Shown here in pieces: positions 7,890 to 54,257 of a DNA stretch of 64,000 bases. The stretch spans positions 34,317 to 98,316 of the forward strand of contig CAVYSE010000008.1 of NCBI GenBank assembly GCA_963771075.1, written 5' to 3'. The DNA comes from a candidate division FCPU426 bacterium. GTDB lineage: Bacteria > Oederibacteriota > Muellerivitia > Muellerivitales > Muellerivitaceae. Under the pieces are notes generated by a model that was not told the origin of the DNA, made no database searches, and was given only the letters and a program-made list of their open reading frames with translations. Numbering within the stretch: position 1 is the first letter of the stretch; every line of letters begins with the position of its first letter. A program made the position numbers and the translations under genes.

Positions 7890-7926
7890 GTTGCACACCA
7901 TCCTTTTTGGGAGGGCCATGTGCAGG
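7890..7926. repeat. 37-bp junction hairpin element, copy 1
   Basis: GTTGCACACCATCCTTTTTGGGAGGGCCATGTGCAGG. Confidence 0.9.
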
Positions 7927-8420
7927 GGTCCATCGTCTCGAATAATTCAAAATCGGCCGAAAAGTTCATCCACGGGATTAAGGTCTTAATGGCCAAAAAC
8001 TACGTGGATAACCTCTCTGAGGAAACTCGCAAGGGGATGACTGAAAAGGCGGCGGAAGGGATATGGCCATCCGCCGCTCCCCTTGGTTACAAGAACATTG
8101 CCGGGCGTGACGGCAAGCGAACCATAAAGCCGGATTCCAAAATGAGCAGGATCATTTATTCCCTGTATAAGGACTATTCAACGGGGCGTTATTCCCTCAC
8201 TGAAATAACTAAGAGGGACTGGAATAAAGGGTTGGTGGTCCGGAAAAGCAAAAAGATTCTTTCCAAGAGTACAGTTTATAAAATTCTAACTAACCGGATG
8301 TATACGGGGGTGTTCCAATGGAGAGAGATAAATTATCGGGGTAAGTACAAGCCTATCATTCCGCAAAAACTTTGGGATAAAACCCAGAAGGTTATGGAAA
8401 AACACTTCAAGTTAAGATAA
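7927..8420 (+). pseudogene. 5'-truncated near-identical copy of the serine recombinase at 45686-46519
   Basis: Matches ~46026-46519 from GSIVSNNSKSAEK onward; lacks the catalytic YVRVSS segment. Confidence 0.9.
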
Positions 8421-8434: not shown

Positions 8435-8462
8435 TGTTCCTTTTGGGTCCCCATCATGGACA
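8435..8462 (+). repeat. att-like dyad site (array 2, site 1)
   Basis: TGTTCC-TTTT-GGG-TC-CCC-ATCA-TGGACA directly after the recombinase copy. Confidence 0.8.
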
Positions 8463-9722: not shown

Positions 9723-9750
9723 TGTCCAGGATGGGTCCCCGTCATGGACA
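9723..9750 (+). repeat. att-like dyad site (array 2, site 2)
   Basis: (GT)TGTCCA-GGAT-GGG-TC-CCC-GTCA-TGGACA(AC). Confidence 0.85.
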
Positions 9751-29654: not shown

Positions 29655-32219
29655 TTAGCTCCTTAAAAAATCCGGGTCGTTTCCGGTGAATTCGTCTTGA
29701 GTGAGTCGAAGGATGGCTTCCCAAGCCCCCTCCTGGTTTTCATCAGGGTTGTAATACTCCATGTATTTCGCCCTGCGGTTCTTGTCCACCGGGTAGCTGG
29801 TGGCGATCCACCTGATCACCGGGTCCGGGCAAACGTAAGCGAGGCCCTGCCGGGCCGAACTGTGGATGAAGCATTGGGAATAAACGTTCCTGACCTGGTG
29901 GAGGCCTCCGATAATGGCGGACTCCTTTTCCCCCAGCTCGAAGGCCCCCACGCACAAAGCCCGGTCGGCGTCCCCAAGCTTCATGAAAATCTTGGTGGCG
30001 GCGTTGTCCAAGGCGGTCTTAGCCTTCTCAGAAGCCATGCAATCGGCTATTTTTTGGGTTGCGAAAATGTTGACGAGGGAAAGATGGCGGGAAGTCCTCG
30101 AAAGAATATCCGCGAAATCCTGGCCAGCCGAAAAGGATAGTAAGTCCCAAAACTCATCTATCCCGATGATCGGGTATTCGCCTTCCTGCTGGGCCTTCCG
30201 GGCCTGGGCAAAGCAATAAGTCGAGACAATGTAGGTCACCATGGCCTTGACCTTCTCCCGCTTGGCCGCAAGGGACGTGTCGAAGACGATAAAGCGGGTT
30301 TTCCGGTCGATGTTGGTTTCCCGGTCGGTGATGTTGGCGAAAGTCCCGTCCTCCGTGTATTGGGTCAAAACTTCGGCATAGGTCGAGCAAAGCTCCGCGC
30401 CCTGGGCGGATCGGTCGGCATCCTTGGCCATTGCGATAAGTTGTTTCCTCAAGTCCCTTAGCAAGGGGGGTGGGAGTTCCACACCTTCCTTCTTCTCTCT
30501 GTCGAATTTAGCCTTGTATGTCTTCTTGATGGCCTCCAAAAGGACGGAGTTGGCCACGTTTGAAAGTGAAGATTCCCCCGTCTCGGTCAAAAGGGTCGTC
30601 AAGAAACCAAGGATGGTTTCCTCCTGGTCCTCGGAGACGATTCCCTTCTTCTGGTAGCTTTCCTCGGGGCAATCGAAGGCGTTGATGTGCTTCTCGCACT
30701 TCAAATCGAAATAGATGTATTCCCCACCCGCCACCAAACAGGATGTTTTGTAGGCCCCGGATCGGTCGATGAGCATGACCTTGGGATCGGACGGCATGAG
30801 CCGGTCGAGGATCGTCTGGATGATGAAACTCTTGCCCGTCCCGGGCTGGCCAAAAACGCCTATGTTGTAGTTTTCCGCCTGGGGATTCCAAAGGTTCAGG
30901 GAGAGAGGTTCATTCGAGGCCGTATGGCCAAGAATGACGCCCTTCTCGACCGTCAAGCTGTCGAAGAAAAAGGGCCAAAGATTGCAAAGGTCCACGGTCA
31001 TTTGGAGCCGTTCAACCCGGTCCCTGACCTGGTTGCTCATGAGGGGGAGGGTCGAATAGAAAAGTTCCTCCTGCTGGTAGTAACCGTCGTAACGGTGGAT
31101 GCCCTCGAACCGGGAAGTAAAATTCTCGTAGTTGTTCTTAAGCTCCTTCTCGGAGTTTCCGTATACGGAAATGAACAAGGAAACCTGGCCCAAGCCGGTT
31201 TCCTTTTGGGCGATAGCGGCCAGGACGGAGTCCCGCTTCCGCCAATTCGCGGCGGCGTCATAGTTGGGGGTCGTGCCGTCGTCCCCGGTGGCCTGGTCTA
31301 TCCTGAGCTGGGAACGAATGAGACTTTTCCCCAGCTCCTGGTCCATGCCACGGATGAAGAAAGTAACCTTGAAGTCCTCTTTCTGGTAAAGGAATTCCGA
31401 AAGGAAATGATCGGGCCTCCCCACTTCGGGGAAATTGGTAACACTCATGGTCCTAACGTATTTCTCCCCCACCTTCACGAAAGCCGGGTCGGAAAGAACC
31501 GGCTGGGCCGAAATGGCCTCGCGGAGGGTTTCCAGGCCCCCGGGCCCTGCAGAAACCGGCGCCGCTTTCCTAAAGCCCCGGGTTTCTCCCTTGAAATCCA
31601 TCAAATTGATCTCGGAGTAAAGAAGCCTGTAAATTTCGTCCTCTTTAAGCTCCGTGGCCACGACCCCGGTCACGCCTAAAATGTGGGTCCAGGTTTTCGC
31701 GCGTCTTTTGACTTCCTCCAGGTGGGCGGACCGGGTTTCGGAGTCTTCCACCTTGTTCTTTTTCTTTCCAAAAACGTTTGAGAGGAAACCCACGGCCATT
31801 TCCGACAAAGGCAATAGGTTGAAGTCTATCGAGAAAAGCAAAAAGACCTCGTAACCGCATAGCCGGTTGTTGAGGAGAAAATCCGAAATCCAACCCTCGT
31901 AATAGGGGGCGAAATGATGCTGGTATCCATCCGGGGCGCTTTCCTTGATGGTTTCCTTGAAGTGACTGATAAGCCCGGTGGGATCGGCGGGGACCCGCCT
32001 CAAGATGACCTGGATTTCCTCGTTGGGCCTTAATTGCCGGATGGCGTTCTCGAAGGAACCAAGCTTGACGTTGGTCGATCCCCGGTCCTCGATGAGGGGG
32101 TTGATTCCCCCCGTAATCCTGTAAACGGAAGAAAAGCGCCCTCTCCTGGATTCAATAAATCCATCCCCCACCCGGGCCAGGTCGATGGATTCCGCCGGGA
32201 CGTTAGTTGAATAAGGCAT
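29655..32219 (-). CDS. virB4: VirB4/TraC-family conjugative ATPase
   Basis: 854 aa; GQPGTGKS, LIDRSG.Y, HINAFD, IVFDTS, GIDEFW and SRH...ATQ. Confidence 0.88.
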   Translation of the reverse strand: MPYSTNVPAESIDLARVGDGFIESRRGRFSSVYRITGGINPLIEDRGSTNVKLGSFENAIRQLRPNEEIQVILRRVPADPTGLISHFKETIKESAPDGYQHHFAPYYEGWISDFLLNNRLCGYEVFLLFSIDFNLLPLSEMAVGFLSNVFGKKKNKVEDSETRSAHLEEVKRRAKTWTHILGVTGVVATELKEDEIYRLLYSEINLMDFKGETRGFRKAAPVSAGPGGLETLREAISAQPVLSDPAFVKVGEKYVRTMSVTNFPEVGRPDHFLSEFLYQKEDFKVTFFIRGMDQELGKSLIRSQLRIDQATGDDGTTPNYDAAANWRKRDSVLAAIAQKETGLGQVSLFISVYGNSEKELKNNYENFTSRFEGIHRYDGYYQQEELFYSTLPLMSNQVRDRVERLQMTVDLCNLWPFFFDSLTVEKGVILGHTASNEPLSLNLWNPQAENYNIGVFGQPGTGKSFIIQTILDRLMPSDPKVMLIDRSGAYKTSCLVAGGEYIYFDLKCEKHINAFDCPEESYQKKGIVSEDQEETILGFLTTLLTETGESSLSNVANSVLLEAIKKTYKAKFDREKKEGVELPPPLLRDLRKQLIAMAKDADRSAQGAELCSTYAEVLTQYTEDGTFANITDRETNIDRKTRFIVFDTSLAAKREKVKAMVTYIVSTYCFAQARKAQQEGEYPIIGIDEFWDLLSFSAGQDFADILSRTSRHLSLVNIFATQKIADCMASEKAKTALDNAATKIFMKLGDADRALCVGAFELGEKESAIIGGLHQVRNVYSQCFIHSSARQGLAYVCPDPVIRWIATSYPVDKNRRAKYMEYYNPDENQEGAWEAILRLTQDEFTGNDPDFLRS

Positions 32220-37625: not shown

Positions 37626-38366
37626 TTATTGGTAAGAAACGATAAGCAACGGAGAGGTCCCGGTGGCCCCGTTGTAGGGGTAGAAATCAACATTCGAAAC
37701 GGATTCGTTGAACTCACCTTCGCTACGCAAAACAAGTCCCTGGTTGGTTCCCGTAAGCCAACCCTGAACGATTGAAGGGGTTATGGTAAATTCGTAAACC
37801 TTGGAAGTACCGGTGGCCGTGGTGGGAAAAACAACCGTGCTGATGGGCGTTAAATTCATAATACCTTGTTGACCATTAGACACATCACCGTCACAAGTAT
37901 TCCAACCGGTGGTCCCACTATAAAAACCCCAAGTCGCGGAAGTAGTCCACAAACAAGAAGGGATTAAAGAACTAGCAAGTTGATGTATGCCTATTGTCAC
38001 TGGATTCGTATTAACAGATGTAGCTGTCTCGGTGGTAAGGTCGATAGCCGCTGAAATGATCTGTGCATTAACAGGTAAAGAAGAAACATCGAATTTTAAT
38101 AAGACTCTTCCATAAGAAGATAAAGCTGAACCGGTTTTAATACGGCGATAAGACGTTGAATATTGGCTTGTAGAAGGTGCATTACAATCAAGCCATGTAT
38201 CAGTTTCTCCACTGTAAAAGGAATTAGGGTAAACGCCATTTTGGAAAGTGGCCTGGAAAGCGATGACTGGGGAACCAGTAGAACCTGCCGGACCAGCCGG
38301 GCCAGTTTTACCATCACACCCAACTAAAATTAAAGCCGACACTAAAATTGAATAAAGAAGTTTCAT
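37626..38366 (-). CDS. Lipoprotein with short collagen-like repeat and DNRLRE-like domain
   Basis: LVGC lipobox, GPAGPAG, DTWL, LLKFDVSSLP...SAAIDL and VQGWL..NQGLVL. Confidence 0.7.
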   Translation of the reverse strand: MKLLYSILVSALILVGCDGKTGPAGPAGSTGSPVIAFQATFQNGVYPNSFYSGETDTWLDCNAPSTSQYSTSYRRIKTGSALSSYGRVLLKFDVSSLPVNAQIISAAIDLTTETATSVNTNPVTIGIHQLASSLIPSCLWTTSATWGFYSGTTGWNTCDGDVSNGQQGIMNLTPISTVVFPTTATGTSKVYEFTITPSIVQGWLTGTNQGLVLRSEGEFNESVSNVDFYPYNGATGTSPLLIVSYQ

Positions 38367-38381
38367 CCAGGTCTCCTTTTT

Positions 38382-39440
38382 TTAATAACTGGTGTTAAGA
38401 ACAGCGGTAGTCCCTGTACCACCCGGCATATAATTACCATTCAAGACATGGTTATCGGGTGTTGTTAAAGTCAAATAACAAGCGACTTGGCCCAACCAAT
38501 TAGCGGCGAAGGAAACAGGAGCGGTAGTGGAACTATTTGAAATGGTGTATGTGCCGTTATAAAAATTATTACCGGTAGATGGAATTACTAAGCTCACACC
38601 TAAAGAGTAAGAATCATTGCAATCATTCGAAGAGACCATACTAAAACTAAATGTATCTTTTGCAGGATAAGAACCGGTGGCAGAAACGATGGAGTTAACA
38701 ACTACCGGGACAGAGTAACCCCTCTGTAATGAAGAAAAAGGATAAGGGAAAATAAAAGTTGAAGAAAAATTGGTGCAAGTCCATGTCAAAGGTAACGAAC
38801 CTACATAGCAATTATTTTTAGAAATGGTAACGGGGGCAGTTGTAACCCCTGCACCTAAAATAAGGTTGGGCGTCGAATATAAAAATTGGCTAGGTAATGA
38901 ATTAAGCGTAATGGATATAGGAGAATAAAGCGGATATACAGGTACGTTCGAGTTGTAATTAAGTGTAAAAATAAAACTGCTGTTGTTAACTGTGTAGGAT
39001 TGAGGAGCAGAAGAAACCAAAGAAATACTTTCAACTCCGCCCTGAAACGTGACGGAAGCCGCTGGGCCGTTGGTTACTTCAGTGATCGCGGCAGAAGATA
39101 GGTAATATTTCCCCTGCGTCGGAATAGTCACGGTATAAACCCCTGCCAAAATCGGGTATGGGTTAAACGCAACCGGCCCGTAAGTAGAAGAAACAACAGT
39201 CGTGGATTTAGAACTAGGATCGGTTAAAACAACCGTAACCCCTCCAACCTCGCCACCGTCCTGAATATAGGCGTTAATAGCTCCCACGGCAGGAGTAGGT
39301 GTTCCGGTGGGAAAATCAAAACCCAACGGGGCGTTGACGCCGAAAGGTTGGGTGTCTTTTTTGCAACCTTCAAACAACGTGAAAGCAATAATGGGCAAAA
39401 GTGAAAAGATAACAGCGAAACTAATAGGCCGAAACTTCAT
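38382..39440 (-). CDS. Ser/Thr-rich beta-sandwich lipoprotein (adhesin-like)
   Basis: FEGC lipobox-like motif and beta-rich sequence. Confidence 0.6.
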   Translation of the reverse strand: MKFRPISFAVIFSLLPIIAFTLFEGCKKDTQPFGVNAPLGFDFPTGTPTPAVGAINAYIQDGGEVGGVTVVLTDPSSKSTTVVSSTYGPVAFNPYPILAGVYTVTIPTQGKYYLSSAAITEVTNGPAASVTFQGGVESISLVSSAPQSYTVNNSSFIFTLNYNSNVPVYPLYSPISITLNSLPSQFLYSTPNLILGAGVTTAPVTISKNNCYVGSLPLTWTCTNFSSTFIFPYPFSSLQRGYSVPVVVNSIVSATGSYPAKDTFSFSMVSSNDCNDSYSLGVSLVIPSTGNNFYNGTYTISNSSTTAPVSFAANWLGQVACYLTLTTPDNHVLNGNYMPGGTGTTAVLNTSY

Positions 39441-39643
39441 AACTCCCTCCCTGTATCTACTTTCCTTCGGTTAGAAAAATAACGGTTGTCCAGCTCCTCA
39501 CGAATGATGTCGGAGGTAGTGATCTTCCGCCCTACCAAAGCCGCTTGATGGATTTCTTCGTAGAGTTTCTTTTTGTGAATCGGGGAGATGGTCGCATCCA
39601 AACGAACGTATTTTATTTTTTTGTAAGCTTGGGTAGATTTCAT
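39437..39643 (-). CDS. Ribbon-helix-helix-like regulator at the head of the transfer operon
   Basis: VRLDATIS...TTSDIIREELDNRY. Confidence 0.5.
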   Translation of the reverse strand: MKSTQAYKKIKYVRLDATISPIHKKKLYEEIHQAALVGRKITTSDIIREELDNRYFSNRRKVDTGREL

Positions 39644-39853
39644 TCATCCTCGCAAGATCACAAACTATGTGGAGTTATTCTGAAAGAATTGGAGACGGGG
39701 GAATATTTAACACGAATAAAAAATTGAGAAAAGAAAAAATTGAATTCCAAAGAAAAAAACTTAGGCCACTTTTTAGGCTAAAATTGTTTTCAGAAAATAA
39801 TCGAGGCAAATTTATTTTTGGACCGGGTTTAAGTTTGATCGTGAGAAAGTATT

Positions 39854-40066
39854 TCAAAGCCTTCTTTCAGAAATGAATTTAATCTCGTCCATCTGGCTAA
39901 TAAAATCCGGGCTATCAACAATGACCGCCCGGCCAAGGTAAACAATGCCTTTGTTAATGTCCCAGCCCGTTTCTTTTAAACAAAGGGTTAAGGCTTTATC
40001 GGAGTTTTCAGCCTCTCCCTTGAACCTTTGACCAGTTTTTCCACACTCAAACACGTATTCGGTCAT
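39854..40066 (-). CDS. Small hypothetical protein
   Basis: 70-aa ORF divergent from the XRE gene. Confidence 0.45.
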   Translation of the reverse strand: MTEYVFECGKTGQRFKGEAENSDKALTLCLKETGWDINKGIVYLGRAVIVDSPDFISQMDEIKFISERRL

Positions 40067-40086
40067 AAAAAACCGCCAAAAATGAG

Positions 40087-40104
40087 TAGTAAGTATACTT
40101 ACTA
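40087..40104. promoter_or_regulatory. Perfect 18-bp palindrome, probable operator
   Basis: TAGTAAGTATACTTACTA between divergent genes. Confidence 0.6.
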
Positions 40105-40137
40105 TGAAAATTACACCCCGCCTTTACCCTTGTCAAC

Positions 40138-40353
40138 GTGAAAGACAAAACATCGGCAATCTTCGGGCAAAATCTGAAAAAGCGGCGGTTACAGAAAAAA
40201 CTCTCCCAAAAAGTCGTGGGGGAGTTGGCGGGATTGACAATGACCTACATTGGACAGTTAGAGCGGGGGAAAATGGGTGTTTCGCTTAGGACTGCCAAGA
40301 GGATCGCGGACGCCCTGGGATGCCGTTTAGAAGATTTAATTCAAGGTTTGTAA
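40138..40353 (+). CDS. XRE-family HTH regulator
   Basis: FGQNLKKRR...LSQ...YIGQLERG...IADAL. Confidence 0.85.
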   Translation: MKDKTSAIFGQNLKKRRLQKKLSQKVVGELAGLTMTYIGQLERGKMGVSLRTAKRIADALGCRLEDLIQGL

Positions 40354-40409
40354 ACAAAGGGCGGGGTATCTGGTCCACCCGGTCCTAAAAACTCTCAACT
40401 GGTGGCCAG

Positions 40410-40604
40410 CTAGGGGCCTTGTTTTGGGATGGGACGCTCTAAAAACGCCGTTTCTTCAGAAATCCAAAATCTTTCATGGCCGTTCACGTCCACCAAAAGC
40501 CCCTCGCCGTGATTCGATCCCACGGTCCAGGGCATGGTTTTAATGAATGTTCCTTCTTCCCCGGTGATGAGGTGTTTCAACTTGTCGCCGGGCTCAAGGA
40601 TCAT
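40410..40604 (-). CDS. Small SH3-like hypothetical protein
   Basis: LEPGDKLKHLITGEEGTF pattern. Confidence 0.45.
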   Translation of the reverse strand: MILEPGDKLKHLITGEEGTFIKTMPWTVGSNHGEGLLVDVNGHERFWISEETAFLERPIPKQGP

Positions 40605-40948
40605 CGGCGGGGGCCGAAAAGCTGTCTCTCGGCGATATTAACCTCAAGGCTGATTGCGGCCCAAGAGATAAGCCAGGCCACCAACCAACCCCAAGCCGCA
40701 AGGGGGATGTATGAAAAAGGTATGTTGCCAAGGGCCACCTTAAAGGCCAGCCCCAAGAAGTGATAAACGAAGAAAATCTTGTAAAAAGCAACGCAAAAAA
40801 TAAACACGAGAAGCAAAAAAAAGGCGAAAGAAAAGGCTCGGATCAAAAGGGCCTTCGCGTACCGCGCAAACCATTCCGCGAAGGGCTGCCGTTCGTTTGT
40901 TGGCTCCTCGATCATCGTGTTTTCCGTCTTTTCTAACTCGTTCTCCAT
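40601..40948 (-). CDS. Two-TM membrane protein
   Basis: Hydrophobic segments, in operon. Confidence 0.5.
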   Translation of the reverse strand: MENELEKTENTMIEEPTNERQPFAEWFARYAKALLIRAFSFAFFLLLVFIFCVAFYKIFFVYHFLGLAFKVALGNIPFSYIPLAAWGWLVAWLISWAAISLEVNIAERQLFGPRR

Positions 40949-40959
40949 AACCAAGCTCC

Positions 40960-41250
40960 TTAAACATCCACTACGGTTTCCCACCGGCTCACCCTGGGGG
41001 AAGGGTCCGGCTCATGAAAACCTAAACCATTACACCTGGGGCAAACACTCCCAGCCGGTCCCCTGCCGGTACCTCCACAAGGTTTGCAGGTGTCAAACCA
41101 AGCGTCCTGGTGGCCGGACCCGTTGCAATCGCAACAAGGAAACCGGCTCGAATAATAAATCCCCTCCATCCAATAGCCATCTGGTCCAGGCTCAAAGCCC
41201 GTCCCCTTGCAAGAGGGGCAATCGACCAAACCCCACGTCCCAGACTCCAT
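40960..41250 (-). CDS. DnaJ-type CxxCxGxG zinc-finger protein
   Basis: Four CxxCxGxG repeats. Confidence 0.65.
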   Translation of the reverse strand: MESGTWGLVDCPSCKGTGFEPGPDGYWMEGIYYSSRFPCCDCNGSGHQDAWFDTCKPCGGTGRGPAGSVCPRCNGLGFHEPDPSPRVSRWETVVDV

Positions 41251-41616
41251 TTAAGCCGTCGAATCCCGGGCGGTAGGTTGGCGCTCTAAAGAAACGTTAA
41301 CTCCCAAAAAGTCATAAATCTGTGAGGCTACAAGGGTCCACCCCGCACGGTATCCACGGTCGTCCAGGTCCTCGATGAATCGTTTCACGAATGAAGTGGC
41401 CAGCTCCTCCGCCTTCTTCTCGTCTTCTAAAAAATCGTAAAGGATACTCATAGCCAAAAGCCTGTGGCCTAAGTGGTTGCCCTTACCCCAATCCAGGACA
41501 TGGGGGTCAGAAAATAAGGCTGTGGATCCCTTTGGCCTCAAGGCCGTAACCCCGTCTTTTAAAATCCGGACCGTGCCGTCCTTGCTCCTAAGTCCAATGT
41601 AAATGGTTTCTTTCAT
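41251..41616 (-). CDS. DUF6166-like protein
   Basis: DWG...LAMSILYD...A...F...FI..L...WTL pattern. Confidence 0.55.
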   Translation of the reverse strand: MKETIYIGLRSKDGTVRILKDGVTALRPKGSTALFSDPHVLDWGKGNHLGHRLLAMSILYDFLEDEKKAEELATSFVKRFIEDLDDRGYRAGWTLVASQIYDFLGVNVSLERQPTARDSTA

Positions 41617-42050
41617 CGGATAGCCTCTCCAATAAGCCGTTCAACGGTTTCAACTTGAAGGTGTTTCCACTTCGGGTTGAAAAATGCCTTCCCGTTCCAA
41701 TCAAACGAAACAAGGTCGAAAGTGTCCCGGGGCCGGTCCTTGTAAAACCCTCCCGGGTAACGCTCAATCCAAACGAAGTCAGACGGGGAAAGTATTCGGT
41801 CCTCTGCCGGCACGTTGCCAACGTAGGGAAAAAGGTTTTTACCCCGCTTGATCTCGACATAGTTAAAAGCCATGGTGGCCAGGTGGGCGGCGCTGTTGGT
41901 GATTGAAGTTCCGGTGTCAGGGCCTAAGTCGCTGGCAATCGCCACAACCCGCCTTTCGTGATAAAACACCTGCAAAAAGCATTTTGATTCCCACGTCCCG
42001 GGTCCCAACCCCTGCCCTTTCCAGTTGAATAATTCTTGGATCAAAACCAT
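41613..42050 (-). CDS. Mobile-element-type hypothetical protein
   Basis: GTSITNSA...WIERYP...FDLVSF...PKWKHL. Confidence 0.6.
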   Translation of the reverse strand: MVLIQELFNWKGQGLGPGTWESKCFLQVFYHERRVVAIASDLGPDTGTSITNSAAHLATMAFNYVEIKRGKNLFPYVGNVPAEDRILSPSDFVWIERYPGGFYKDRPRDTFDLVSFDWNGKAFFNPKWKHLQVETVERLIGEAIR

Positions 42051-42072
42051 AAACCCCTCAAAGGTTCGTTAG

Positions 42073-42441
42073 TTATGTTGTAAGAGTTAATTTTCCAGGC
42101 CCCAAAAGAAACTCGGCCAGGCTCACGTCATAAGACCCGGCTATCCGGCAAAGAACCGAGTAGCTGGGGTTAACTCCCTTCCTGCATTCCTCGATGTGCT
42201 GGTAGGTGGCCAGGCTGCACCCGACCAGATCGGCGGCCTGGTCCTGGGTCCTGCCGGTGGTCAATCTCCACCCCCAAGCGGCCCGCGCGAGGATCGCTAC
42301 GGGCGTCTCCTGGGTGATTTTTTTGTAAACGTCCGGCTTGTTCTCCTTCACCCACCCAAGCCAGGTATCGGCATTGAGATAGGTTTTAGACGCTTCCGGA
42401 TCGGCTAAGAATCGTGTTCCCTTTTTATGGGCGGTTTTCAT
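42073..42441 (-). CDS. XRE-family HTH protein
   Basis: TQDQAADLVGCSLATYQHIEE...NPS...RIA. Confidence 0.75.
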   Translation of the reverse strand: MKTAHKKGTRFLADPEASKTYLNADTWLGWVKENKPDVYKKITQETPVAILARAAWGWRLTTGRTQDQAADLVGCSLATYQHIEECRKGVNPSYSVLCRIAGSYDVSLAEFLLGPGKLTLTT

Positions 42442-42447
42442 GCGTCA

Positions 42448-42476
42448 ATGCTACACCTAATATATTAGGTGTTCAA
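42448..42476 (-). promoter_or_regulatory. Leaderless-type sigma70 promoter with a perfect 20-bp palindromic operator
   Basis: TTGAAC-17bp-TAGCAT, 6 nt before the ATG; palindrome ACACCTAATATATTAGGTGT at 42453-42472. Confidence 0.7.
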
Positions 42477-42517
42477 TAAAAAAGGTTTTAAGCCGGTCCC
42501 CCGCGAGGGGGGTCTGA

Positions 42518-42850
42518 TCACTCCCCTCTGGTTTTGAAAAGCTCGATGAAAGCCATGGGTTTAAAATCCAGGTCCAACATAACGGGCACGCCATTAACCT
42601 CCACAAAGGCCATTTCGTTCAAGGAAAAGTAACCCCACTCGGGGTAGGCGGACGGTCCCTCCACCCAGCCAAAAAAGAGGCGGTTTTCTAGATCGTACTC
42701 CACCGCATACCAAGCGTGGCGGGAAAGAGGATGATAAAACCTCATCCTTAAAATCTTCTCGTTAAGCCCCTTCTTCTCGGTGGAATAAAGCGGGGGCATA
42801 TCGGCCAAGGCCTCCGGGTGGTCCAGTAACGTCTCACAAGGTTTAAACAT
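42518..42850 (-). CDS. DUF2958-family protein
   Basis: PPLYSTE...WYAVEYD...FFGWV...EWGYFSLNE...DLDFKP. Confidence 0.75.
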   Translation of the reverse strand: MFKPCETLLDHPEALADMPPLYSTEKKGLNEKILRMRFYHPLSRHAWYAVEYDLENRLFFGWVEGPSAYPEWGYFSLNEMAFVEVNGVPVMLDLDFKPMAFIELFKTRGE

Positions 42851-42874
42851 GAAAAGCCTCCTTAAGATAATTAT

Positions 42875-43069
42875 TCAAGATTCAAAAATCGTTTGGCAAT
42901 CCGCACAAAAACCGGTTTCGAAGTTGGGGGAAGCCTCGGGTTTACCGCAAACCAAGCAAACCCCATGGCAAGCCGGGCAAGGGCCTTCCTTGATCTCGTC
43001 CCAGCCGTGGGAGCAACCCCAAGCGGCCCATGGGAAGTGGAGTTCTACTTTTAAAGTTTTGGCTTCCAT
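42875..43069 (-). CDS. Small Cys-rich zinc-finger protein
   Basis: Several CxxC motifs. Confidence 0.5.
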   Translation of the reverse strand: MEAKTLKVELHFPWAAWGCSHGWDEIKEGPCPACHGVCLVCGKPEASPNFETGFCADCQTIFES

Positions 43070-43078
43070 GGATCGTCC

Positions 43079-43255
43079 TTAGTTGAGGATGAAGTCGTTG
43101 GCGTTACGGCTTCCAAGGTAGGAAACGTCCTCAAGCCTCCAATTAAAAGTTTCAATGAGCTGGCCGACGGCCTTCCCTAAAGCAAACTGGCCATCCTCCA
43201 AAATCACTTTGATCTCGGCGGTGCCCCTGTTCTTGAAGATGAAAAACTTTTTCAT
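43079..43255 (-). CDS. Small hypothetical protein, first gene after structured repeat A
   Basis: AAGGAG RBS; start MKKFFIF. Confidence 0.5.
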   Translation of the reverse strand: MKKFFIFKNRGTAEIKVILEDGQFALGKAVGQLIETFNWRLEDVSYLGSRNANDFILN

Positions 43256-43274
43256 TGTTGAGACTCCTTGCTGA

Positions 43275-43753
43275 TTGATTAGAGGAGGGAGCGGCCTCCG
43301 GGGACCGCCCCCCCAAAAGACTTGGGGGCGGGCCACGGAGCGAAAAGAGGTGTTCGTCTTTGGAAAACTTTTGTTCCGGGGGAGTGCGTCTAGGTGTCAG
43401 CATCATCCGGGCAAAGCCCGTCCCGTCTGTGCTGGCCGGATAGCCGACGGAGGAGGCCCGGCCAGGGACGGGGTTTAGGGGCGGAGGCCCCGGCCCGGAC
43501 GGCAAAGCCGCCCGGAAAATAGTTTTCTACAGGATTTGCGTCTCTGGGATTGTCAGGGGGCACTCCCCCTGACTAGGGTAGGGCTTGGTGACGGGGATCT
43601 TCCCGGCCCAAAGGGGGTTCCGGGGGGCTGTGCCCACCCGGGCCAGGAAAAGGTGAAGGGAAGGGGGTGTTCCCTGCCCTTCGAGTTAAAAATCTTTTGA
43701 GGAAACCTACACGTCCCCGGGAAGCCTTCCGGCCCGGGGACGGCGAGGTTTCC
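43275..43753. repeat. ~480-bp structured repeat, copy A
   Basis: Homologous to 45120-45597 and 55119-55597; many hairpins. Confidence 0.88.
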
Positions 43754-43816
43754 GACCCGCGCGGCGCTGGGTCCGTGGCCAGGCCCTTTAGGGCCCGGCC
43801 TGGTCCTCGGGGTTCT

Positions 43817-44002
43817 TTAATAAAACCTTGCCCCGTAAGTTCTTTGAAGGTTGAGCCGGTGCTTAGCCCGGTCCACCGCTTCTTTTTTTGTGGTGCCGTA
43901 TCCAAAGACTCCGGGTTTGCCCTCATCCTTGAACCAAGCTCCAAAGGTCGTCCTGTTCTCCCACCAAACCTTGAATCCGTTTCCCTGTTCCAAAATCCTC
44001 AT
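43817..44002 (-). CDS. Small hypothetical protein
   Basis: AAGGAG RBS; GYGTTKKEAV motif. Confidence 0.45.
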   Translation of the reverse strand: MRILEQGNGFKVWWENRTTFGAWFKDEGKPGVFGYGTTKKEAVDRAKHRLNLQRTYGARFY

Positions 44003-44011
44003 GGCGGCTCC

Positions 44012-44212
44012 TTAGTTGAATTCCCATTGCTCCCGGATATCCGGGGAACAGTCAGGGCAAAGGTGGTGGCTGTGATGAGGGGTGGCTTTCATTCGAACCC
44101 CGCACCCTGGGCAGGTGAATTCGGATAGATGGGGCGTTTCCCGCCCCATCCTTTCCGGTATGTAGTCGAACCCCATCTTGTGTTGTAGCGTCCTGGGCTT
44201 ATTCCCGCTCAT
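44012..44212 (-). CDS. Small zinc-ribbon protein
   Basis: CPGC...CPDC; coupled to the ardC stop. Confidence 0.5.
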   Translation of the reverse strand: MSGNKPRTLQHKMGFDYIPERMGRETPHLSEFTCPGCGVRMKATPHHSHHLCPDCSPDIREQWEFN

Positions 44213-45102
44213 TGGGCGGCTTCCTTCTTTTCGTGTTTCACCTTGAGGATGAAATCGACGGCCCTCTGTGCGTGGGAAGCGGCGTGAATGATCGCCTGTT
44301 TGTCGTCTTTCAAAACCTTGAGCCAAGAGGCGATATAAGATGAGTGGGCGCTGTTGTAAGCGAGGCCAATATGTGACGAGAGAAAAGACCCCCCCAACTC
44401 CGCCACTAATTCCTCGAATGCGTAAGCCTCTGAACCAAACCGGCCTGAAAAATTCCGGTTGAGCCTCGAAACGTGGCCGCTGGCGTGGGTCAATTCGTGA
44501 AAAACCGTGTTGTAAAGCCCTTGGGTGGATTTGAAGGAATCCCTCGAAGGAAGGGTGATCTTGTCGGTGGCCGGGGAATAAAAAGCCTTATCCATGCCGC
44601 TGAAAGAAATGCTCACCCCGGAATCGGCCATGATCTTCTCGCCCTCCTCGATGGGGTCCACGGTCATGAGAATGTTCTTCGCCTTGAGGGCGTCCAGTCC
44701 CTCGGTCTGGTCCAGGTTGAAAACGTGGTAAACCTTGAGAAGGGGGAAGCTCTCGATCTTGGCTTTGCCCTGGTCGTCCAGTTCCTCGCCCTTGTGGGTC
44801 AAAATGTCATAAAAAACAATCTCGCTTGATTTCTCGCCCTTCTTGATTCGTCCCCCTAAGTCGGTGGCCTGTTTGAAGGTCAGCCAGGCCGGGCACGAAT
44901 ACTGCTTGAAAGCCCTGACGTAGGAAAGAATCAGGATATTTACTCCCCGGTATTCCTTCCCCGTGGATGCGTTCTTTGGGATTGCGCTGAACCAATCCTT
45001 TTCCCACGGCATGACGCCTTTGGCCAGGTCGCTCAAAACCCTTTCCGTGATTTCCTCCATGGCCGCTGTTGATTTGTTTTGCTTCGTACCCGTCTTTTCC
45101 AT
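44209..45102 (-). CDS. ardC: ArdC antirestriction protein (ssDNA-binding + zincin domain)
   Basis: PWEKDW, YRGVN, WLTFKQA, VFNLDQ, AFYSP..D.I, HELTHASGH..RL.R, YAFEELVAE and SYIASW. Confidence 0.92.
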   Translation of the reverse strand: MEKTGTKQNKSTAAMEEITERVLSDLAKGVMPWEKDWFSAIPKNASTGKEYRGVNILILSYVRAFKQYSCPAWLTFKQATDLGGRIKKGEKSSEIVFYDILTHKGEELDDQGKAKIESFPLLKVYHVFNLDQTEGLDALKAKNILMTVDPIEEGEKIMADSGVSISFSGMDKAFYSPATDKITLPSRDSFKSTQGLYNTVFHELTHASGHVSRLNRNFSGRFGSEAYAFEELVAELGGSFLSSHIGLAYNSAHSSYIASWLKVLKDDKQAIIHAASHAQRAVDFILKVKHEKKEAAQ

Positions 45103-45119
45103 ATCGCTTCTCCTTTGTT

Positions 45120-45597
45120 TGATTAGAGGAGAGAGCGGCCTCCGGGACCGCCCCCCCACAAAGACTTGGGGGCGGTCACGGAGCGAAAGAGGTGTTCGCC
45201 TATAGAAAATCGAAGTCCGGGGGTTGTGCGCTTAGGTGTTAGCAAACGGGGATTTCTCTCCCCCATCTGTGCTGGCCGGATAAGACGACGGAGGAGTCCC
45301 GGCCAGGGGGAGAGAAAAGGCGCTGACCGGTCCCCGCCACGAAGTGGCCCCCGGATTCGGTTTTCGTCCACGTTGCTGTGCGACGCCGGGCATATCAGGG
45401 GTTACTTCCCCTGATTAGGGAAGAGTTTGATGACGGGGATCTTCCCGTCTCAAGGGGAGACGGAGGGGCTAACAGCCCACTCGGGCTAGGAAAAGGTGAA
45501 GGGAAGGGGTTCTTCCCTGCCCTTCGAGTTTAAAAGCCTTTAGAGGAAACCTACACGGCCCACGGGAAGCCTTACCGCCCTGGGACGGCGAGGTTTC
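45120..45597. repeat. ~480-bp structured repeat, copy B
   Basis: Directly upstream of ardC. Confidence 0.85.
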
Positions 45598-45685
45598 TTT
45601 CACCATGGCCGTTACGATGTCGGGTGGGCTAAAAAGCCAAAGAAGATAATCCTCTCTGAATAACCCTTATCTCAAAGGAGAGGAA

Positions 45686-46519
45686 ATGAAAACTGCCATC
45701 GTCCCCAAACAGCCAACCCAAGCGGTTCTTTATGTCCGGGTATCTTCCAAGGAACAGGAAAAAGGGGGGTTCTCCATCCCGGCCCAATTGAGATTGCTTC
45801 GGCAATATGGTGAAACCCAAGGGTTCACCATCATCAAAGAATTTCGGGACGTTGAAACGGCCAAGCAATCTGGCCGTGAAGGCTTTGGTGAGATGGTTAA
45901 TTACCTTCTGAATAATTCAAACTGCAAATATTTATTGGTCGAGAAAACTGATCGCCTTTACCGGAATTTCAAGGATTACGTTTCGTTGGAAGATATGGAT
46001 GTTGAGATCCACCTGGTTAAAGAAGGTTCCATCGTTTCGAATAATTCTAAATCGGCCGAAAAGTTCATCCACGGGATTAAGGTCTTAATGGCCAAAAACT
46101 ACGTGGATAACCTCTCTGAGGAAACTCGCAAGGGGATGACTGAAAAGGCGGCGGAAGGGATATGGCCATCCGCCGCTCCCCTTGGTTACAAGAACATTGC
46201 CGGGCGTGACGGCAAGCGAACCATAAAGCCGGATTCCAAAATGAGCAGGATTATTTATTCACTTTATAAGGACTATTCGACGGGGCGTTATTCCCTCAAG
46301 GAAATAACTAAGAGGTACTGGAATAAAGGGTTGGTGGTCCGGAAAAGCAAAAAGATTCTTTCCAAGAGTACGGTTTATAAAATACTAACTAACCGGATGT
46401 ATACGGGGGTGTTCCAATGGAGAGAGATAAATTACCGGGGTAAGTACAAGCCTATCATTCCGCAAAAACTTTGGGATAAAACCCAGAAGGTAATGGAAAA
46501 ACACTTCAAGTTAAGATAA
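45686..46519 (+). CDS. Short serine recombinase (resolvase catalytic + recombinase domain; no zinc ribbon/coiled coil)
   Basis: YVRVSSKEQ, KTDRLYRN, APLGY, ILTNRMYTG and KPIIPQKLWDKTQ, then stop at 277 aa. Confidence 0.9.
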   Translation: MKTAIVPKQPTQAVLYVRVSSKEQEKGGFSIPAQLRLLRQYGETQGFTIIKEFRDVETAKQSGREGFGEMVNYLLNNSNCKYLLVEKTDRLYRNFKDYVSLEDMDVEIHLVKEGSIVSNNSKSAEKFIHGIKVLMAKNYVDNLSEETRKGMTEKAAEGIWPSAAPLGYKNIAGRDGKRTIKPDSKMSRIIYSLYKDYSTGRYSLKEITKRYWNKGLVVRKSKKILSKSTVYKILTNRMYTGVFQWREINYRGKYKPIIPQKLWDKTQKVMEKHFKLR

Positions 46520-46533: not shown

Positions 46534-46561
46534 TGTTCCTTTTGGGTCCCCGTCGTGGACA
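46534..46561 (+). repeat. att-like dyad site 1
   Basis: TGTTCC-TTTT-GGG-TC-CCC-GTCG-TGGACA. Confidence 0.85.
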
Positions 46562-46623: not shown

Positions 46624-46651
46624 TATTTGAAATAGCTCCCCGTCGTGGACA
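46624..46651 (+). repeat. att-like site 2 (left arm degenerate)
   Basis: TATTTG-AAAT-AGC-TC-CCC-GTCG-TGGACA. Confidence 0.7.
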
Positions 46652-46666: not shown

Positions 46667-47332
46667 TTATCGTTGGCGTCGTTTAAATATTGGCAAGTTA
46701 AACAGATCAGCCAAGGTATACTTTTCCTCTGTTATTAACTTAACTTCCGCTTCTAGCTTTTTTACTATTTCGCCTAATCTCAATTCAACCACATCTTCTT
46801 TGCTACTTCGCCATATTAGATCTCCAGCTTGTTCTATTAACTGTAAATCAGCTTCTGATTGAACATAAACTTGGTTTGTCGCCTTCTCGTACCAATGCTC
46901 CCTCATAATATCCGCACCCCAAATTATGTCATTCCATAACTTGTTCGCGTCGGTATAAATTTCTTCCGCAGGTTTTCCAAACCTCGCCATCGTTGTGTAT
47001 TTAAGCTTAAAAAAATTATTAATGTATTCTTTTCCGGAATTATAGCGTGCATAAAATACATAGCCTTGGTCTTTTGCATGAACAACTTCAGGTGGATCGC
47101 TTTTCTCTTTTTCTGATTTAGGTCTCGAAGCGCTTTCTGCTGTTGACGAAAGTGGGTTTCTTATATTCCAAATTGAATCTTTGAAAGCGTAAATCGAAGC
47201 CAACCATTCTTCAGCCAATTCAATTCTTCGTTTAGAAATAAATTCTTGCCGCCAAATACTTAAAGTTGCAATACCCACCCAAATCCCCACCAAAATAGAA
47301 ATCGATTGAAGAATTTGGATCGCCTCATTCAT
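46667..47332 (-). CDS. Cassette gene: N-terminally anchored hypothetical protein
   Basis: AT-rich 221-aa ORF with one TM followed by helices. Confidence 0.7.
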   Translation of the reverse strand: MNEAIQILQSISILVGIWVGIATLSIWRQEFISKRRIELAEEWLASIYAFKDSIWNIRNPLSSTAESASRPKSEKEKSDPPEVVHAKDQGYVFYARYNSGKEYINNFFKLKYTTMARFGKPAEEIYTDANKLWNDIIWGADIMREHWYEKATNQVYVQSEADLQLIEQAGDLIWRSSKEDVVELRLGEIVKKLEAEVKLITEEKYTLADLFNLPIFKRRQR

Positions 47333-47390
47333 TTAATTTATCCTTTTCCAAGAACAGCGAATGAAAAACCAAAACCATTTCTACAATTCT

Positions 47391-47418
47391 TGTTTTTTCA
47401 GGGTTCGGGACGTGGACA
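47391..47418 (+). repeat. att-like site 3 (degenerate)
   Basis: TGTTTT-TTCA-GGG-TT-CGG-GACG-TGGACA, same 16-bp spacing. Confidence 0.55.
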
Positions 47419-47477
47419 ATTTAATTACCACGATTTAAAACAACTAAATGTCTAAATATTCTTGCTAAAGGTTTTTT

Positions 47478-49155
47478 TCAGTTATTGGCCAATTGTATTT
47501 TGCGAATTAAGTGGTTTAATAATTCTGTCACATAAATATTATTAGAAGCATCAACTGCGATACCAACGGGACAATTAAATGAAGAGGAATTTCTTTTTCC
47601 ATTTCTAGAGCCTTCTTTTCCTGAACCGGCTAATGTTTTTACCATACCATCAGTAGTTATTTCCCGAATTAGGTTATTATTCCTATCAACCACAAGGATA
47701 GACCCCGTTTTTTCCACGGCGATTCCATCAGGATGATTAAAAGTTGCAATGGCAACCTTCCCATTTCTTGACCCTCTAATTTTTGCTTGCCCAGCAACTG
47801 TGCTTACAACCCCATTTATATTTATTTTTCTAATTAAATTGTTCACCGAATCTGCTACAAAAACTTCGCCAGCAGAATTTACTGCAATTCCTTCTGGGTT
47901 GTAGAATGAAGCGGAAATCCCTTCCCCGTTTTCTGAACCTTTTGAGCCTGATCCTGCAATTGTTGTCACCAATCCAGCCGGAGTAATTTTTCTTATGAGT
48001 TCATTTTGAGTATCCGCAACATAGATATTACCCGAAGAATCCACAGTAATTCCTTCCGGAGAATGAAACATCGCGTAACATTGAATCCCATTAGCGGACC
48101 CAGGTTTTCCATTTCCCGCTAAAATTGTAAGCTTTCCATCACAAGTGATTTTAAAAATTGCGTTTTCAGCTGAATCCGCCACATAAATATTATCCTTGGA
48201 ATCAATCGCAACTCCTACAGGGCTAACAAATAAAGAATCAGAATGATTTTCCCTTAAACGACACATCAAATTTTGTTACCAAACCATTAGGATTAATTTT
48301 TCGAATTGATTCCCCTGATGCAACAAAAATGTTTCCGTGGGAATCTAAAGCGATGCCCCTTGGGTGAGAGAATGAGGCCTCAATTCCTAAACCATTCTTG
48401 TAACCAATTTCGCCTGAACCTGCGAAAGTCGTAACAATCCCACCATTTTTTTCTTCCGATCCATTTGAAAATAAAGGGAAGGCATGAAAATGCTGTTGAA
48501 TGAATATGCCAGCAATCACAAGGAAAATAATTATTACAGGCAAACGGTTCCTAAAAATCAAATGCTGGACTTCCTCATTCCTAAAATTGAACCCGCACTC
48601 CAAACAATAGGCAGCTTTAATCGGGTTTTTGGTTTTACATTCTGGACAGGCTTTGACTTGGCCTTTTACTGTTGTGGCCGGGTGTTCTCTATTTTCCATC
48701 CCTTCTTCCACTGCTTCTTTTAGAACCATTAATTTTGGAACTGATTTTGTTACTCTTATCACTTTGGTTCCGGTGATCCGGTCATGCCATCCTCGGGGAG
48801 TTTCATCGCCACTTAAAAAAGAGAATGGCTCAAAAGGTATACAACGACACATAGCGCGGGTTAAAACATTCCAAATATTCAAATTTGTCCCGTCTTCCTT
48901 GACGGCTTTGGTCCTAGTGATTATTTTCCCAATGGTTCTTCCCCCAAAAATTTCCTGGGAGAAATAAATGACCGCCAATATAAAACCGAGACTGTATTGA
49001 CCTAAATGTTTTGTGAGTTCGGCCAAACCGATCGAACCCAAGAAATAACCGATGCCATATCCAATTTCTTTCCCAAAAACGTTTATGAGGAGGTAGAAAA
49101 TAAATATATCGATCAGGTAATTGGCTAGTCTTTGGTTTTTTGTGGCCAGTTCCAT
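47478..49155 (-). CDS. Cassette gene: RDD + zinc ribbon + NHL-repeat protein, split by one frameshift near 48245
   Basis: RLANYLID, GRTIGK and RGWHDRITGT; CPEC/CLEC; repeated P.GIAVD..GNIYVAD. Confidence 0.8.
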
Positions 49156-49297: not shown

Positions 49298-49325
49298 TGT
49301 CCAAGAAGGGTCCCCGTCGTGGACA
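49298..49325 (+). repeat. att-like dyad site 4
   Basis: TGTCCA-AGAA-GGG-TC-CCC-GTCG-TGGACA. Confidence 0.88.
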
Positions 49326-49368: not shown

Positions 49369-50289
49369 TCACGCCAGGATCATATCAATCTTGTTCAAGT
49401 CATCGTCGGTCAAGTGCCAGTCGGCGGCAGCGGCGTTCTTGGCGATCTGTTCGGACTTGGTTGCACCGGCGATGACCGAGGCGACGGACTTCCGAGTGAG
49501 CAGCCAAGAAAAGGCGAGTTCGAGGATTGTGTGGCCCCGCGATTCAGCGAAAACAATCAGCTTCTCGACGATGTCCAGGTTCTTGTCGGTCAATAGGTTC
49601 GAGAAGTTATTATCGGACTTGATGCGTGCGCCTTCGGGAAGGCGCTGCCCTTGGCGGTATTTGCCCGTGAGCAGGCCGCTAGCAAGGGGGAAGTAGGGCA
49701 GAAACGCGATTCCGAGTTTCTCGCACTCGGGGAGCACCTCGGCCTCGGGGTCGCGTTTCAACAGGCTGTAGTCGTTCTGGACACTGACGAAGTGCACCGC
49801 GCCCCGCGTGACGGCGGCCCTGGCCTCTCGCAGTTGTGCGGCGGAGAAATTAGAGCAGCCAATCTCACGAACCTTACCGGCCTGGACGAGTTCATTGAGA
49901 ACTCCTAGCGTGTCGGCGATGGGTATCGTGTCGTCGGGCAGGTGCAATTGATACAGATCAATGCGATCGGTATTGAGTCGCCGCAGGCTGTCCTCGACGG
50001 CCCTGCGGATGTACTCAGGTTTGGCCCCGCCGGGCATGGCGTCGTTGATGGGAGCGCCGAACTTTGATGCCAGTATCACCTGATCTCGACGCATCCCCAG
50101 CGCGTTCCCCAGAAACTCCTCGCTCTTGGTGCCGCCGTAGATGTCGGCGGTGTCGAAGAAGTTGATGCCGGCGTCGAGACTGGCGTCAATGACGCTTTTT
50201 GTGGCGTCGGCGTCAATGCGCCCGCCGAAGTTGTTGCAGCCCAGCCCAACGACCGAAACGTTGAGCGACCCAATCTTGCGTGTCTCCAT
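49369..50289 (-). CDS. Cassette gene: aldo/keto reductase
   Basis: GLGCNNFG, FFDTADIYG, SLRRL.TDRIDLYQLH and PLASGLLTGKY. Confidence 0.92.
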   Translation of the reverse strand: METRKIGSLNVSVVGLGCNNFGGRIDADATKSVIDASLDAGINFFDTADIYGGTKSEEFLGNALGMRRDQVILASKFGAPINDAMPGGAKPEYIRRAVEDSLRRLNTDRIDLYQLHLPDDTIPIADTLGVLNELVQAGKVREIGCSNFSAAQLREARAAVTRGAVHFVSVQNDYSLLKRDPEAEVLPECEKLGIAFLPYFPLASGLLTGKYRQGQRLPEGARIKSDNNFSNLLTDKNLDIVEKLIVFAESRGHTILELAFSWLLTRKSVASVIAGATKSEQIAKNAAAADWHLTDDDLNKIDMILA

Positions 50290-50380: not shown

Positions 50381-50407
50381 TGTCCAATCCGGGTCCCGTC
50401 GTGGACA
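50381..50407 (+). repeat. att-like dyad site 5
   Basis: TGTCCA-ATCC-GGG-TC-CC-GTCG-TGGACA (1 bp short). Confidence 0.82.
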
Positions 50408-50517: not shown

Positions 50518-51285
50518 TCAGGCAAGCGTCAGAACCCTGGGACCTTTTTTTGTAATAGCAACGCTGTGTTCCCAGTGAGCGGCCAGTCCCCCTTCTCGGC
50601 TGACCACCGTCCAACCGTCTTGGAGAATCCGAACCGCGCCGCTACCCAAGACCAACATCGGTTCGATCGCCAAGACCATTCCAACCTTCAGTTCCGGACC
50701 GGAACCCCGGCGCCCATAATTAGGTACCATAGGGTCTTCGTGCATTTCGCGGCCAATGCCGTGGCCCACGAAATCCCTGACAATGCCATAGCCTTTTTCA
50801 TTGGCCAAAGCTTCGATGGCGGCCCCCAAATCGCCGAGGTGTTTTCCAGGCTGGCATTCGCGAATCGCGGCATCAAGCGCTATCCGGGTGTTGTCCAGGA
50901 GATCTCGTGCAGGAGCGCTGATAACGCCCACCGCGATGGTACGGGCCGCATCCGCACTGTAACCGTTCTTTTGGCAGGCAAAGTCGATGCCGATGATGTC
51001 CCCTTCTTGAAGAATCGCTGCCTTATCGGGAATGCCATGTACGACAACATCATTGATCGAGGTACAAAGAACAGCTGGGTAAGGCGAAACCGGCCCAGGT
51101 TGATAACCCAAGAACGACGATCGCGCCCGTTCCCGGCTCAAGATATCAAAAGCGATCTCATTCAACCGGGCCGTCGTGGTTCCAGGCACGCAAGCGGCTT
51201 CAACCGCGTCCAGCACAGCCGCAACAACGCGTCCCGTTTCGCCCATAAGATTAATTTCTTCCCCGGTCTTTAAAACGATACCCAT
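50518..51285 (-). CDS. map: Cassette gene: type I methionine aminopeptidase
   Basis: CTSINDVVVHGIP, GHGIG..MHEDP, AIEPM and AHWEHSV. Confidence 0.92.
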   Translation of the reverse strand: MGIVLKTGEEINLMGETGRVVAAVLDAVEAACVPGTTTARLNEIAFDILSRERARSSFLGYQPGPVSPYPAVLCTSINDVVVHGIPDKAAILQEGDIIGIDFACQKNGYSADAARTIAVGVISAPARDLLDNTRIALDAAIRECQPGKHLGDLGAAIEALANEKGYGIVRDFVGHGIGREMHEDPMVPNYGRRGSGPELKVGMVLAIEPMLVLGSGAVRILQDGWTVVSREGGLAAHWEHSVAITKKGPRVLTLA

Positions 51286-51433: not shown

Positions 51434-51462
51434 TGTCCACTGCTGGGTCCCCGTCGTGAACA
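51434..51462 (+). repeat. att-like dyad site 6
   Basis: TGTCCA-CTGCT-GGG-TC-CCC-GTCG-TGAACA. Confidence 0.8.
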
Positions 51463-54229: not shown

Positions 54230-54257
54230 TGTCCACCCTGGGTCCCCATCGTGGACG
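54230..54257 (+). repeat. att-like dyad site 7 (array end)
   Basis: TGTCCA-CCCT-GGG-TC-CCC-ATCG-TGGACG. Confidence 0.8.

Follow-up and report, generated by a model that had tools for sequence, protein, structure and literature searches.

What does a serine integrase do when its chain ends where the zinc domain (ZD, or DBD2) and coiled coil (CC) of its long relatives would begin? This question is raised by a 277-aa recombinase encoded in the 64,000-nucleotide stretch of a candidate division FCPU426 genome analysed here (the window), and by the short palindromic sites beside its gene. The features of the window are collected in Table 1, in which positions are those of the window. G000 denotes the genome of this stretch, other G numbers related genomes, and L numbers loci.

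Table 1. Recombinase gene, relic, 28-bp sites, cassettes and neighbouring features of the window
Feature	Coordinates	Strand	Basis or further copies
Second-system repeat of 37 bp, directly next to the truncated 5' end of the relic	7890..7926	+	also 10449-10485, 56203-56239
5'-truncated recombinase relic, codons ~114-277, without the catalytic serine	7927..8420	+	
28-bp site after the relic	8435..8462	+	
28-bp site	9723..9750	+	
VirB4/TraC-like ATPase, conjugative-element marker	29658..32219	-	below NCBIfam cut-offs
ICE-like leading region with ArdC gene and ~480-bp repeated leader, in divergent orientation to the recombinase gene	44209..45600	-	
Short serine recombinase, 277 aa: catalytic domain, helix E and RD	45686..46519	+	ORF, Pfam, structure match
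First 28-bp site (13+TC+13), 14 nt past the stop; left arm degenerate	46534..46561	+	
Half-site, 90 bp past the first site; right arm perfect, left arm decayed	46624..46651	+	
Cassette cargo: 221-aa ORF without Pfam match, NHL-repeat protein, RDD protein; 38-40% GC	46667..49155	-	
28-bp site	49298..49325	+	
Cassette cargo: aldo-keto reductase	49369..50289	-	Pfam
Site with 1-bp deletion near the centre	50381..50407	+	
Cassette cargo: M24 peptidase, methionine aminopeptidase-like	50518..51285	-	Pfam
Site with 1-bp insertion in the left arm	51434..51462	+	
28-bp site, RadC side	54230..54257	+	

Domains, length and charge of the recombinase

The first-pass annotation had described a protein that stops at 277 aa directly after its recombinase domain (RD, or DBD1) and leaves no C-terminal remnant, and the ORF and domain searches agree with it on both points. 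The translated ORF ends in ...KTQKVMEKHFKLR*, and Pfam placed Resolvase (PF00239) at residues 13–159 (E 5e-22) and Recombinase (PF07508), which is the RD, at 189–272. The ZD family Zn_ribbon_recom (PF13408), located at 287–338 in a long relative, was absent from the 277-aa protein in the same search, and the chain terminates before the CC. Alignment with long relatives showed that the short proteins end within the RD–ZD linker, ahead of the first CxxC; in the long proteins this linker is short and is followed by CxxC...C motifs. An HMM of the C-terminal half, built from 60 long relatives, was run against a six-frame translation of the complete G000 genome and gave no match with E<1. A split gene or a trans-acting ZD/CC was rejected on this result, with tblastn returning RD overlap or weak matches (best other 8e-4). 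No HTH family matched the 277-aa protein, for which Pfam gives the RD instead, and the IS607 model NF033518 scored 38 against a cut-off of 110, with the catalytic domain beginning at residue 13.

The predicted structure was of modest quality (pLDDT 67, with helix E below 50). Its best Foldseek matches were serine integrase–DNA complexes (9dxd, E 2.5e-11), the model superposed on 4kis with an rmsd of 3.1 over 131 columns, and the predicted RD fold matched 4kis and 6dnw. R18-V19-S20 was invariant across 128 aligned sequences, as were R90 and R93, indicating an intact active site, and we infer from the family motif that S20 is the nucleophile.

The short length proved to be a property of a clade. 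Among the 120 matches listed, the 19 closest relatives (68–96% identical) were all 275–283 aa long and contained PF13408 in no case, after which identity fell to 61% or less; the best of the 120 longer proteins listed was 60% identical. All eight loci of at least 68% identity in the fetched DNA stop at 276–281 (L004 and L013 among them are one gene), and most others reach 500–550. A search among 50%-identity representatives returned mainly long proteins and nothing further. The short proteins formed one group (SH-aLRT 99) nested inside the long family in a quick, midpoint-rooted ML tree of 86 rows (20 short proteins, 60 of the 120 long proteins listed, and 6 locus proteins), and the two long integrases nearest to this group have hosts of the same family and order. 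The dN/dS ratio was 0.04–0.13 in 10 of 15 full-length short pairs, the remaining five being saturated; judged by these ratios, the short clade is under purifying selection. Such comparisons confirmed the 277-aa length as a stable, clade-wide loss of the C-terminal half. A recent lesion, which the first-pass annotation had named as the finding that would overturn it, was ruled out, since no full-length relative exceeds about 60% identity among those listed, selection is purifying, and the C-terminal remnant is missing. The other overturning outcome that it named, an inactive protein, was likewise not upheld at the genomic level. Two 289-aa members of the long family, P0036 and P0049, have odd tails and an RD charge of +9, and are possibly independent truncations or frameshifts.

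The RD of the short clade is strongly basic. Its net charge is 9–25, about +19, and at least 15 in 19 of 20 proteins, against about +4 in the long proteins (at most 11 in 117 of 120 measured), and the charge of the catalytic domain is nearly equal (+2.4 short, +0.1 long). Base composition leaves this extra charge unexplained, because long relatives from 10 loci of equally low GC have an RD charge of only +1 to +8. Lysines at 181, 195, 214, and 261 occur in 17–19 of the 20 short proteins and in 0–1 of the 120 long ones; these four are Glu/Ala-to-Lys changes. The LI integrase without its ZD (1–264) binds about 25-fold more weakly, as described in PMC3783163, where the CC-less enzyme acts as an unregulated resolvase whose synapsis needs help. 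A CC-less LI integrase is promiscuous yet nearly inactive in intermolecular recombination, giving little integration product (PMC5499577). Plain loss of the C-terminal part is thus probably insufficient by itself, and the extra RD charge fits the weaker binding of the cut LI integrase. The basic RD likely offsets the lost zinc domain, which would restore affinity.

Sites, cassettes and their movement

The site is a symmetric palindrome of 28 bp (13+TC+13) without bulged bases. At a threshold of 18 bits, 96 sites were found in G000 and 0 in the reversed control; the G000 sites make up 15 arrays plus 11 singletons. Across these 96 sites the information was about 1.4–1.5 bits at ±13 and at most 0.53 beyond, and nothing that could serve as an accessory site was conserved past ±13 within 26 bp of the core. 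The half-site 90 bp past the first site was rejected as an accessory site, because its spacing is not conserved in other loci. The LI RD contacts 13 bp, with helix H reading positions 9–11, and its ZD reads positions 16–24 in attP and 11–19 in attB, according to PMC3783163. G9-G10-A11 is strongly conserved in the 28-bp site, which occurs as one type only; a pair of different att sites, with outer ZD motifs offset by 5 bp, was not seen. By this analogy, the idea that the site has the maximum length readable by an RD-only enzyme is supported, and the earlier inference that loss of the module fits short symmetric sites is supported as well; conservation stops at the 13-bp RD footprint. The TC was retained in 249 of 262 pooled sites, and position −1 varied in 29, though such core conservation is partly circular as the sites were selected by consensus. 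Forty-seven of the 262 vary inside the central six bases, and left arms carry more mismatches than right arms (2.3 vs. 0.8).

A site lies 8–36 nt 3' of the stop in all six full-length short genes having downstream DNA (G000, G004, G020, G024, G044, and L094), compared with none of four long relatives from the host family. This first site has a degenerate left arm in most loci. In G020 it is cut, immediately to the right of its core, by the reverse transcriptase gene of a group II intron (L207:15608-17200). The exact site was absent from the viral contigs searched, and no Rfam match was found in 43–57 kb of the window.

Long relatives point to where such a site may have come from. Of 126 of their loci examined, 83 have a tRNA gene on the opposite strand at the integrase stop, for Asn in 35 cases and for Gln in 40. 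On the integrase strand, the site agrees with the tip of the host tRNA-Asn at 13 of 18 positions, compared with at most 9 for the other 27 parsed tRNAs, and it is the right arm of the site that resembles this tip targeted by the long relatives. In long junctions without the tRNA arm, CGAAC was found at +19 in 5 of 29 candidate rows (4 exact cases of what looks like the attP form); this is five bases further out than its +14 position in the tRNA arm, the shift that a ZD motif should show. The +14 count and the GGAY positions in long junctions were forced by the search pattern and are not evidence. The G000 sites have CGAAC at +14 in 0 of 96 and at +19 in 2 of 96. Few as these cases are, they suggest that protein and DNA of the short system both retain what belongs to RD reading and have lost what belongs to ZD reading. 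Derivation of the left arm from the P arm of long relatives was rejected (score −15.0 vs. −17.4 for the control, no resemblance), and a search for attL of the long relatives, covering 50 loci with at least 3 kb of upstream sequence as well as 25 kb of G004, found none.

The segments between sites are organized as cassettes. In G000 and the fetched parts of relatives there are 192 inter-site segments; 144 hold a dominant ORF, and 136 of these point one way. A scan for a common cassette promoter remained at chance level (3 vs. 1.6 ± 1.3). The product of the cassette adjoining the recombinase at L196:15835-17961 (G004) is 709 aa long and contains PF00144, a domain of the beta-lactamase family. 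An inverted duplication of an array stands at a contig end of G000 (C26:136000-144686) and may be an assembly artefact.

Comparison of whole segments yielded 21 homologous pairs, of which 17 have unrelated flanks on both sides, two represent a two-cassette block moved together, and two belong to the inverted duplication on C26. Four of the 17 are 100% identical, i.e., a 414-bp cassette shared by G000 and G024, one of 1001 bp shared by G004 and G044, one of 1243 bp within G004, and one of 889 bp within G044; all genomes with such cassettes hold the full enzyme. The any-site-by-any-site exchange proposed in the first-pass annotation appears to hold in direct orientation only, in which 68 of 70 adjacent sites of G000 stand, with inversion seen in none of the 21 shared cassettes.

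Linkage between arms and flanks was examined after intron-flanked sites were dropped and pairs dereplicated (right-shared from 23 to 13, left-shared from 48 to 10). The 13 site pairs sharing a right flank differ at 41 positions in their left arms and at 2 in their right arms (169 positions each), right-arm variants thus going with the right flank, and the 10 pairs sharing a left flank gave no linkage signal (16 left vs. 13 right mismatches). A single pair on the left, and two cases on the right, confine the crossover to TC..+2. The recombinase and its first site are covered in pieces by contigs from four runs, none of the listed holders being RNA; site–site joints, from one run with sides of 24–34 nt, were indistinguishable from repeat matches.

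Distribution and mobile surroundings

The site pattern was found in 28 of 31 genomes of the host family, in the one other genome of the order, and in 0 of 67 others of the phylum. Full-length enzyme occurs in only 5 of the 31 family genomes. Each of the six genomes richest in sites holds a recombinase gene or a 3' relic; the site-rich G002, G003, G008, and G018 gave no PF07508 match, and in G041–G046, searched at E 1e-20 only, small relics could be missed. The copy at 7927-8420 has the same stop and the same downstream site, 14 nt later, as first described, but the catalytic serine is missing, which makes it a relic rather than a second enzyme. It is 97% identical to the full gene over 538 nt, and the two sites that follow it bracket an FAD oxidoreductase gene (8476-9693, minus strand). 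Two further 3' relics lie on contigs C6 and C28. The differences of the C8 and C28 relics from the full gene are mostly silent (10.5:2.5 and 8.5:3.5), which suggests separate arrivals of working alleles.

The recombinase gene appears to travel on mobile DNA. Leading-region genes or the leader repeat lie upstream of it in G000, G020, G024, and G044, and the upstream genes in G004 are chromosomal; no neighbouring gene is common to all five full-length loci. The recombinase of G044 sits within a 7.0-kb stretch between two direct sites, together with ArdC, RadC, a toxin–antitoxin pair, and an IS. A 1959-bp segment with RadC and the leader (54244-56202), running from the core of a site to the 37-bp repeat, is 98.8% identical on contig C12.

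Several observations concern the surroundings themselves. An ICE-like run of minus-strand genes, most without a Pfam match, occupies 26216-45159, and a region on C3 related to this run adjoins a tyrosine recombinase. The GC-rich leader of about 480 bp occurs three times (43250-43740, 45110-45600, and 55090-55580), upstream of ArdC, RadC, and small ORFs, and also on C12 and in G024 and G044; it resembles the conserved upstream repeats of conjugative plasmids. An IS1380-type element at 21689-23393 is 99.9% identical to a copy in G044 and matches one in G004, both of other genera; on sequence grounds, this is a recent exchange between genera. A third family of repeats (50–85 bp) stands before short genes at 12050-25072, with its core motif present four times, in this region only, plus one weak match. 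Beside a flagellar hook gene, the 1125-aa protein encoded at 59679-63053 combines long Thr-rich repeats with a sorting-like domain at its C terminus.

The 37-bp repeat is CRISPR-like, with 29 copies in G000, and occurs in 9 of 31 family genomes; C1:40747-45656 and C3:410875-414235 of G000 and L244, L245, and L252 are further loci of this system. In all six genomes with at least 10 such repeats, a single type of Cas1 is encoded, and the ORF after it (110 aa) matches Cas2 weakly (E 0.006–0.018, below cut-off); the repeat directly follows this ORF in several genomes. The segments between repeats measure from about 70 bp up to several kb, and some stretches in them are identical to other genome loci, such as an IS interior and the 3' part of the recombinase gene. 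Cas1 begins beside a 28-bp site in G004 and G044. The system is possibly one of Cas1-driven capture of long DNA fragments.

A proposed mechanism and known systems

Taken together, we consider it quite probable, from the sequences and by analogy with integrases of known structure, that the short enzyme carries out reversible, orientation-preserving recombination between any two equivalent direct 28-bp sites, moving cassettes in and out. As judged from large serine integrase structures, a dimer would use helix E and the RD to read each 13-bp arm, two sites would synapse, and Ser20 would cut around the central TC before subunit rotation swaps the arms, a chemistry based on serine recombinase structures (PMC11722253). 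Because TC is asymmetric, sites could align only in direct orientation. A system with a single site type and no CC would have neither attP/attB identity nor an RDF, and we propose that expression, supercoiling, and arm quality would then decide the outcome. Synapsis between separate molecules would be the weak step. The reaction may also be biased by a helper or by asymmetry of the arms.

It is unlikely that the enzyme handles only its own element and that cassettes are moved by a tyrosine recombinase (e.g., Xer, 11+6+11) or by homologous recombination. Many genomes hold arrays without the enzyme, the palindrome can form a hairpin (−14.4 kcal/mol), and 28 bp also fits the length of dif (PMC6449649). 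However, the eight tyrosine recombinase matches in G000 lie at least 26.9 kb from any site, the centre, variable in dif, is conserved here with TC kept as described above, and the sites are direct, not inverted. Enzyme-free arrays also have a parallel in CALINs, half of which lie in genomes without IntI (PMC4889954).

Rather improbable is a hidden directionality, by which a host or element protein, or the arm sequence, replaces the CC and favours insertion at the degenerate site adjoining the gene. The decayed left arm of most first sites, the greater variation of left arms, and the help that a CC-less LI integrase needs for synapsis would fit this, but the genome encodes no ZD/CC-like protein, conservation like that of an accessory site is missing beyond ±13, and the five full-length loci share no neighbouring gene. 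A resolvase-like enzyme that only deletes within one supercoiled molecule, while cassettes enter by another route, recalls the unregulated resolvase activity of the CC-less LI integrase and is very unlikely here: identical cassettes ending exactly at sites stand in different arrays and genera, so that insertion at sites is needed. That the enzyme is a recently broken or inactive integrase and its sites passive repeats is scarcely credible. Several copies are 5'-truncated or frameshifted relics, which would fit it, but the short length is clade-wide with deep synonymous divergence and dN/dS of about 0.1, catalytic residues are invariant, and the C-terminal remnant is absent.

Returning to the reversible exchange of cassettes by the short enzyme, its origin may have been a tRNA-tip integrase that lost its C-terminal half, upon which the RD-read, tRNA-Asn-type arm would have become a two-fold symmetric site. 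The gene would travel on mobile DNA, visit genomes, and decay, leaving arrays without enzyme. On balance we lean towards the wider reading of a family-wide serine-recombinase cassette system on the scale of sedentary integrons, in which a tRNA-targeting integrase lost its directionality module, recharged its RD, and made the tRNA-Asn arm a symmetric site. Without any accessory factor, this site would capture, store, and exchange genes, among them the integrase gene itself and a cas1-cas2-like unit. If so, the integron strategy was invented independently with another chemistry, and a 277-aa enzyme with a 28-bp site would make a compact, Cre-like, reversible serine recombinase tool.

Natural loss of ZD and CC makes testable whether an integrase core binds and synapses without its C-terminal half, with the four Glu/Ala-to-Lys changes in the RD, for example, as candidate enabling changes. 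We found no paper on a natural family member without ZD and CC, or on cassette arrays of a serine recombinase; most subscription papers and supplements were outside the scope of this search, and the catalogues of large serine recombinases there could list such proteins. Two mining pipelines retain, in their selection step, only proteins of 400–650 or 400–700 aa (PMC10083194 and PMC12016792), so the short class would have been lost from both.

The likeness to small serine resolvases and invertases and to IS607 transposases is that of short serine recombinases acting on short two-fold sites. In resolvases and invertases, a C-terminal HTH, not an RD, binds DNA, and accessory sites or an enhancer are used; the HTH of IS607 transposases is N-terminal to the catalytic domain. 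Large serine integrases (LI/A118, Bxb1, phiC31, and SPbeta) share the catalytic domain, helix E, and RD, and a site that follows or overlaps the 3' end of the gene. However, their attP and attB are longer than the one 28-bp type found about 100 times per genome here, and they possess the ZD and, within it, the CC that the short enzyme, under selection and with a strongly basic RD, naturally lacks. Their reaction runs in one direction and is reversed by an RDF. The short enzyme is the natural counterpart of the engineered delta-ZD (LI 1–264) and delta-CC mutants (PMC3783163 and PMC5499577). The tRNA-tip serine integrases (about 510–530 aa) are closest, with 50–60% identity over the common part and the same arm register GG-x-TC-CCC-N5-GGA, but they keep ZD and CC and the CGAAC motif, which all but 2 of the 96 G000 sites lack.

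Integrons and CALINs resemble the short system in a recombinase with an adjoining site, co-oriented cassettes between direct sites, many arrays without the enzyme, and group II introns that home to sites (PMC4889954). They differ in that the short-system gene reads towards the first site and its cassettes point back at it. IntI is a tyrosine recombinase, unlike the serine enzyme here, and attC, with features such as bulged bases, differs from the perfect, fixed 28-bp palindrome. The pdif modules of Acinetobacter likewise have 28-bp sites bracketing accessory genes, but these are 11+6+11 sites with a variable centre, in inverse orientation, and served by XerC/D, whereas the centre is conserved and the sites are direct here (PMC6449649). 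The short system thus falls outside large serine integrases, integrons, and pdif modules, joining a serine integrase core to an integron-like use.
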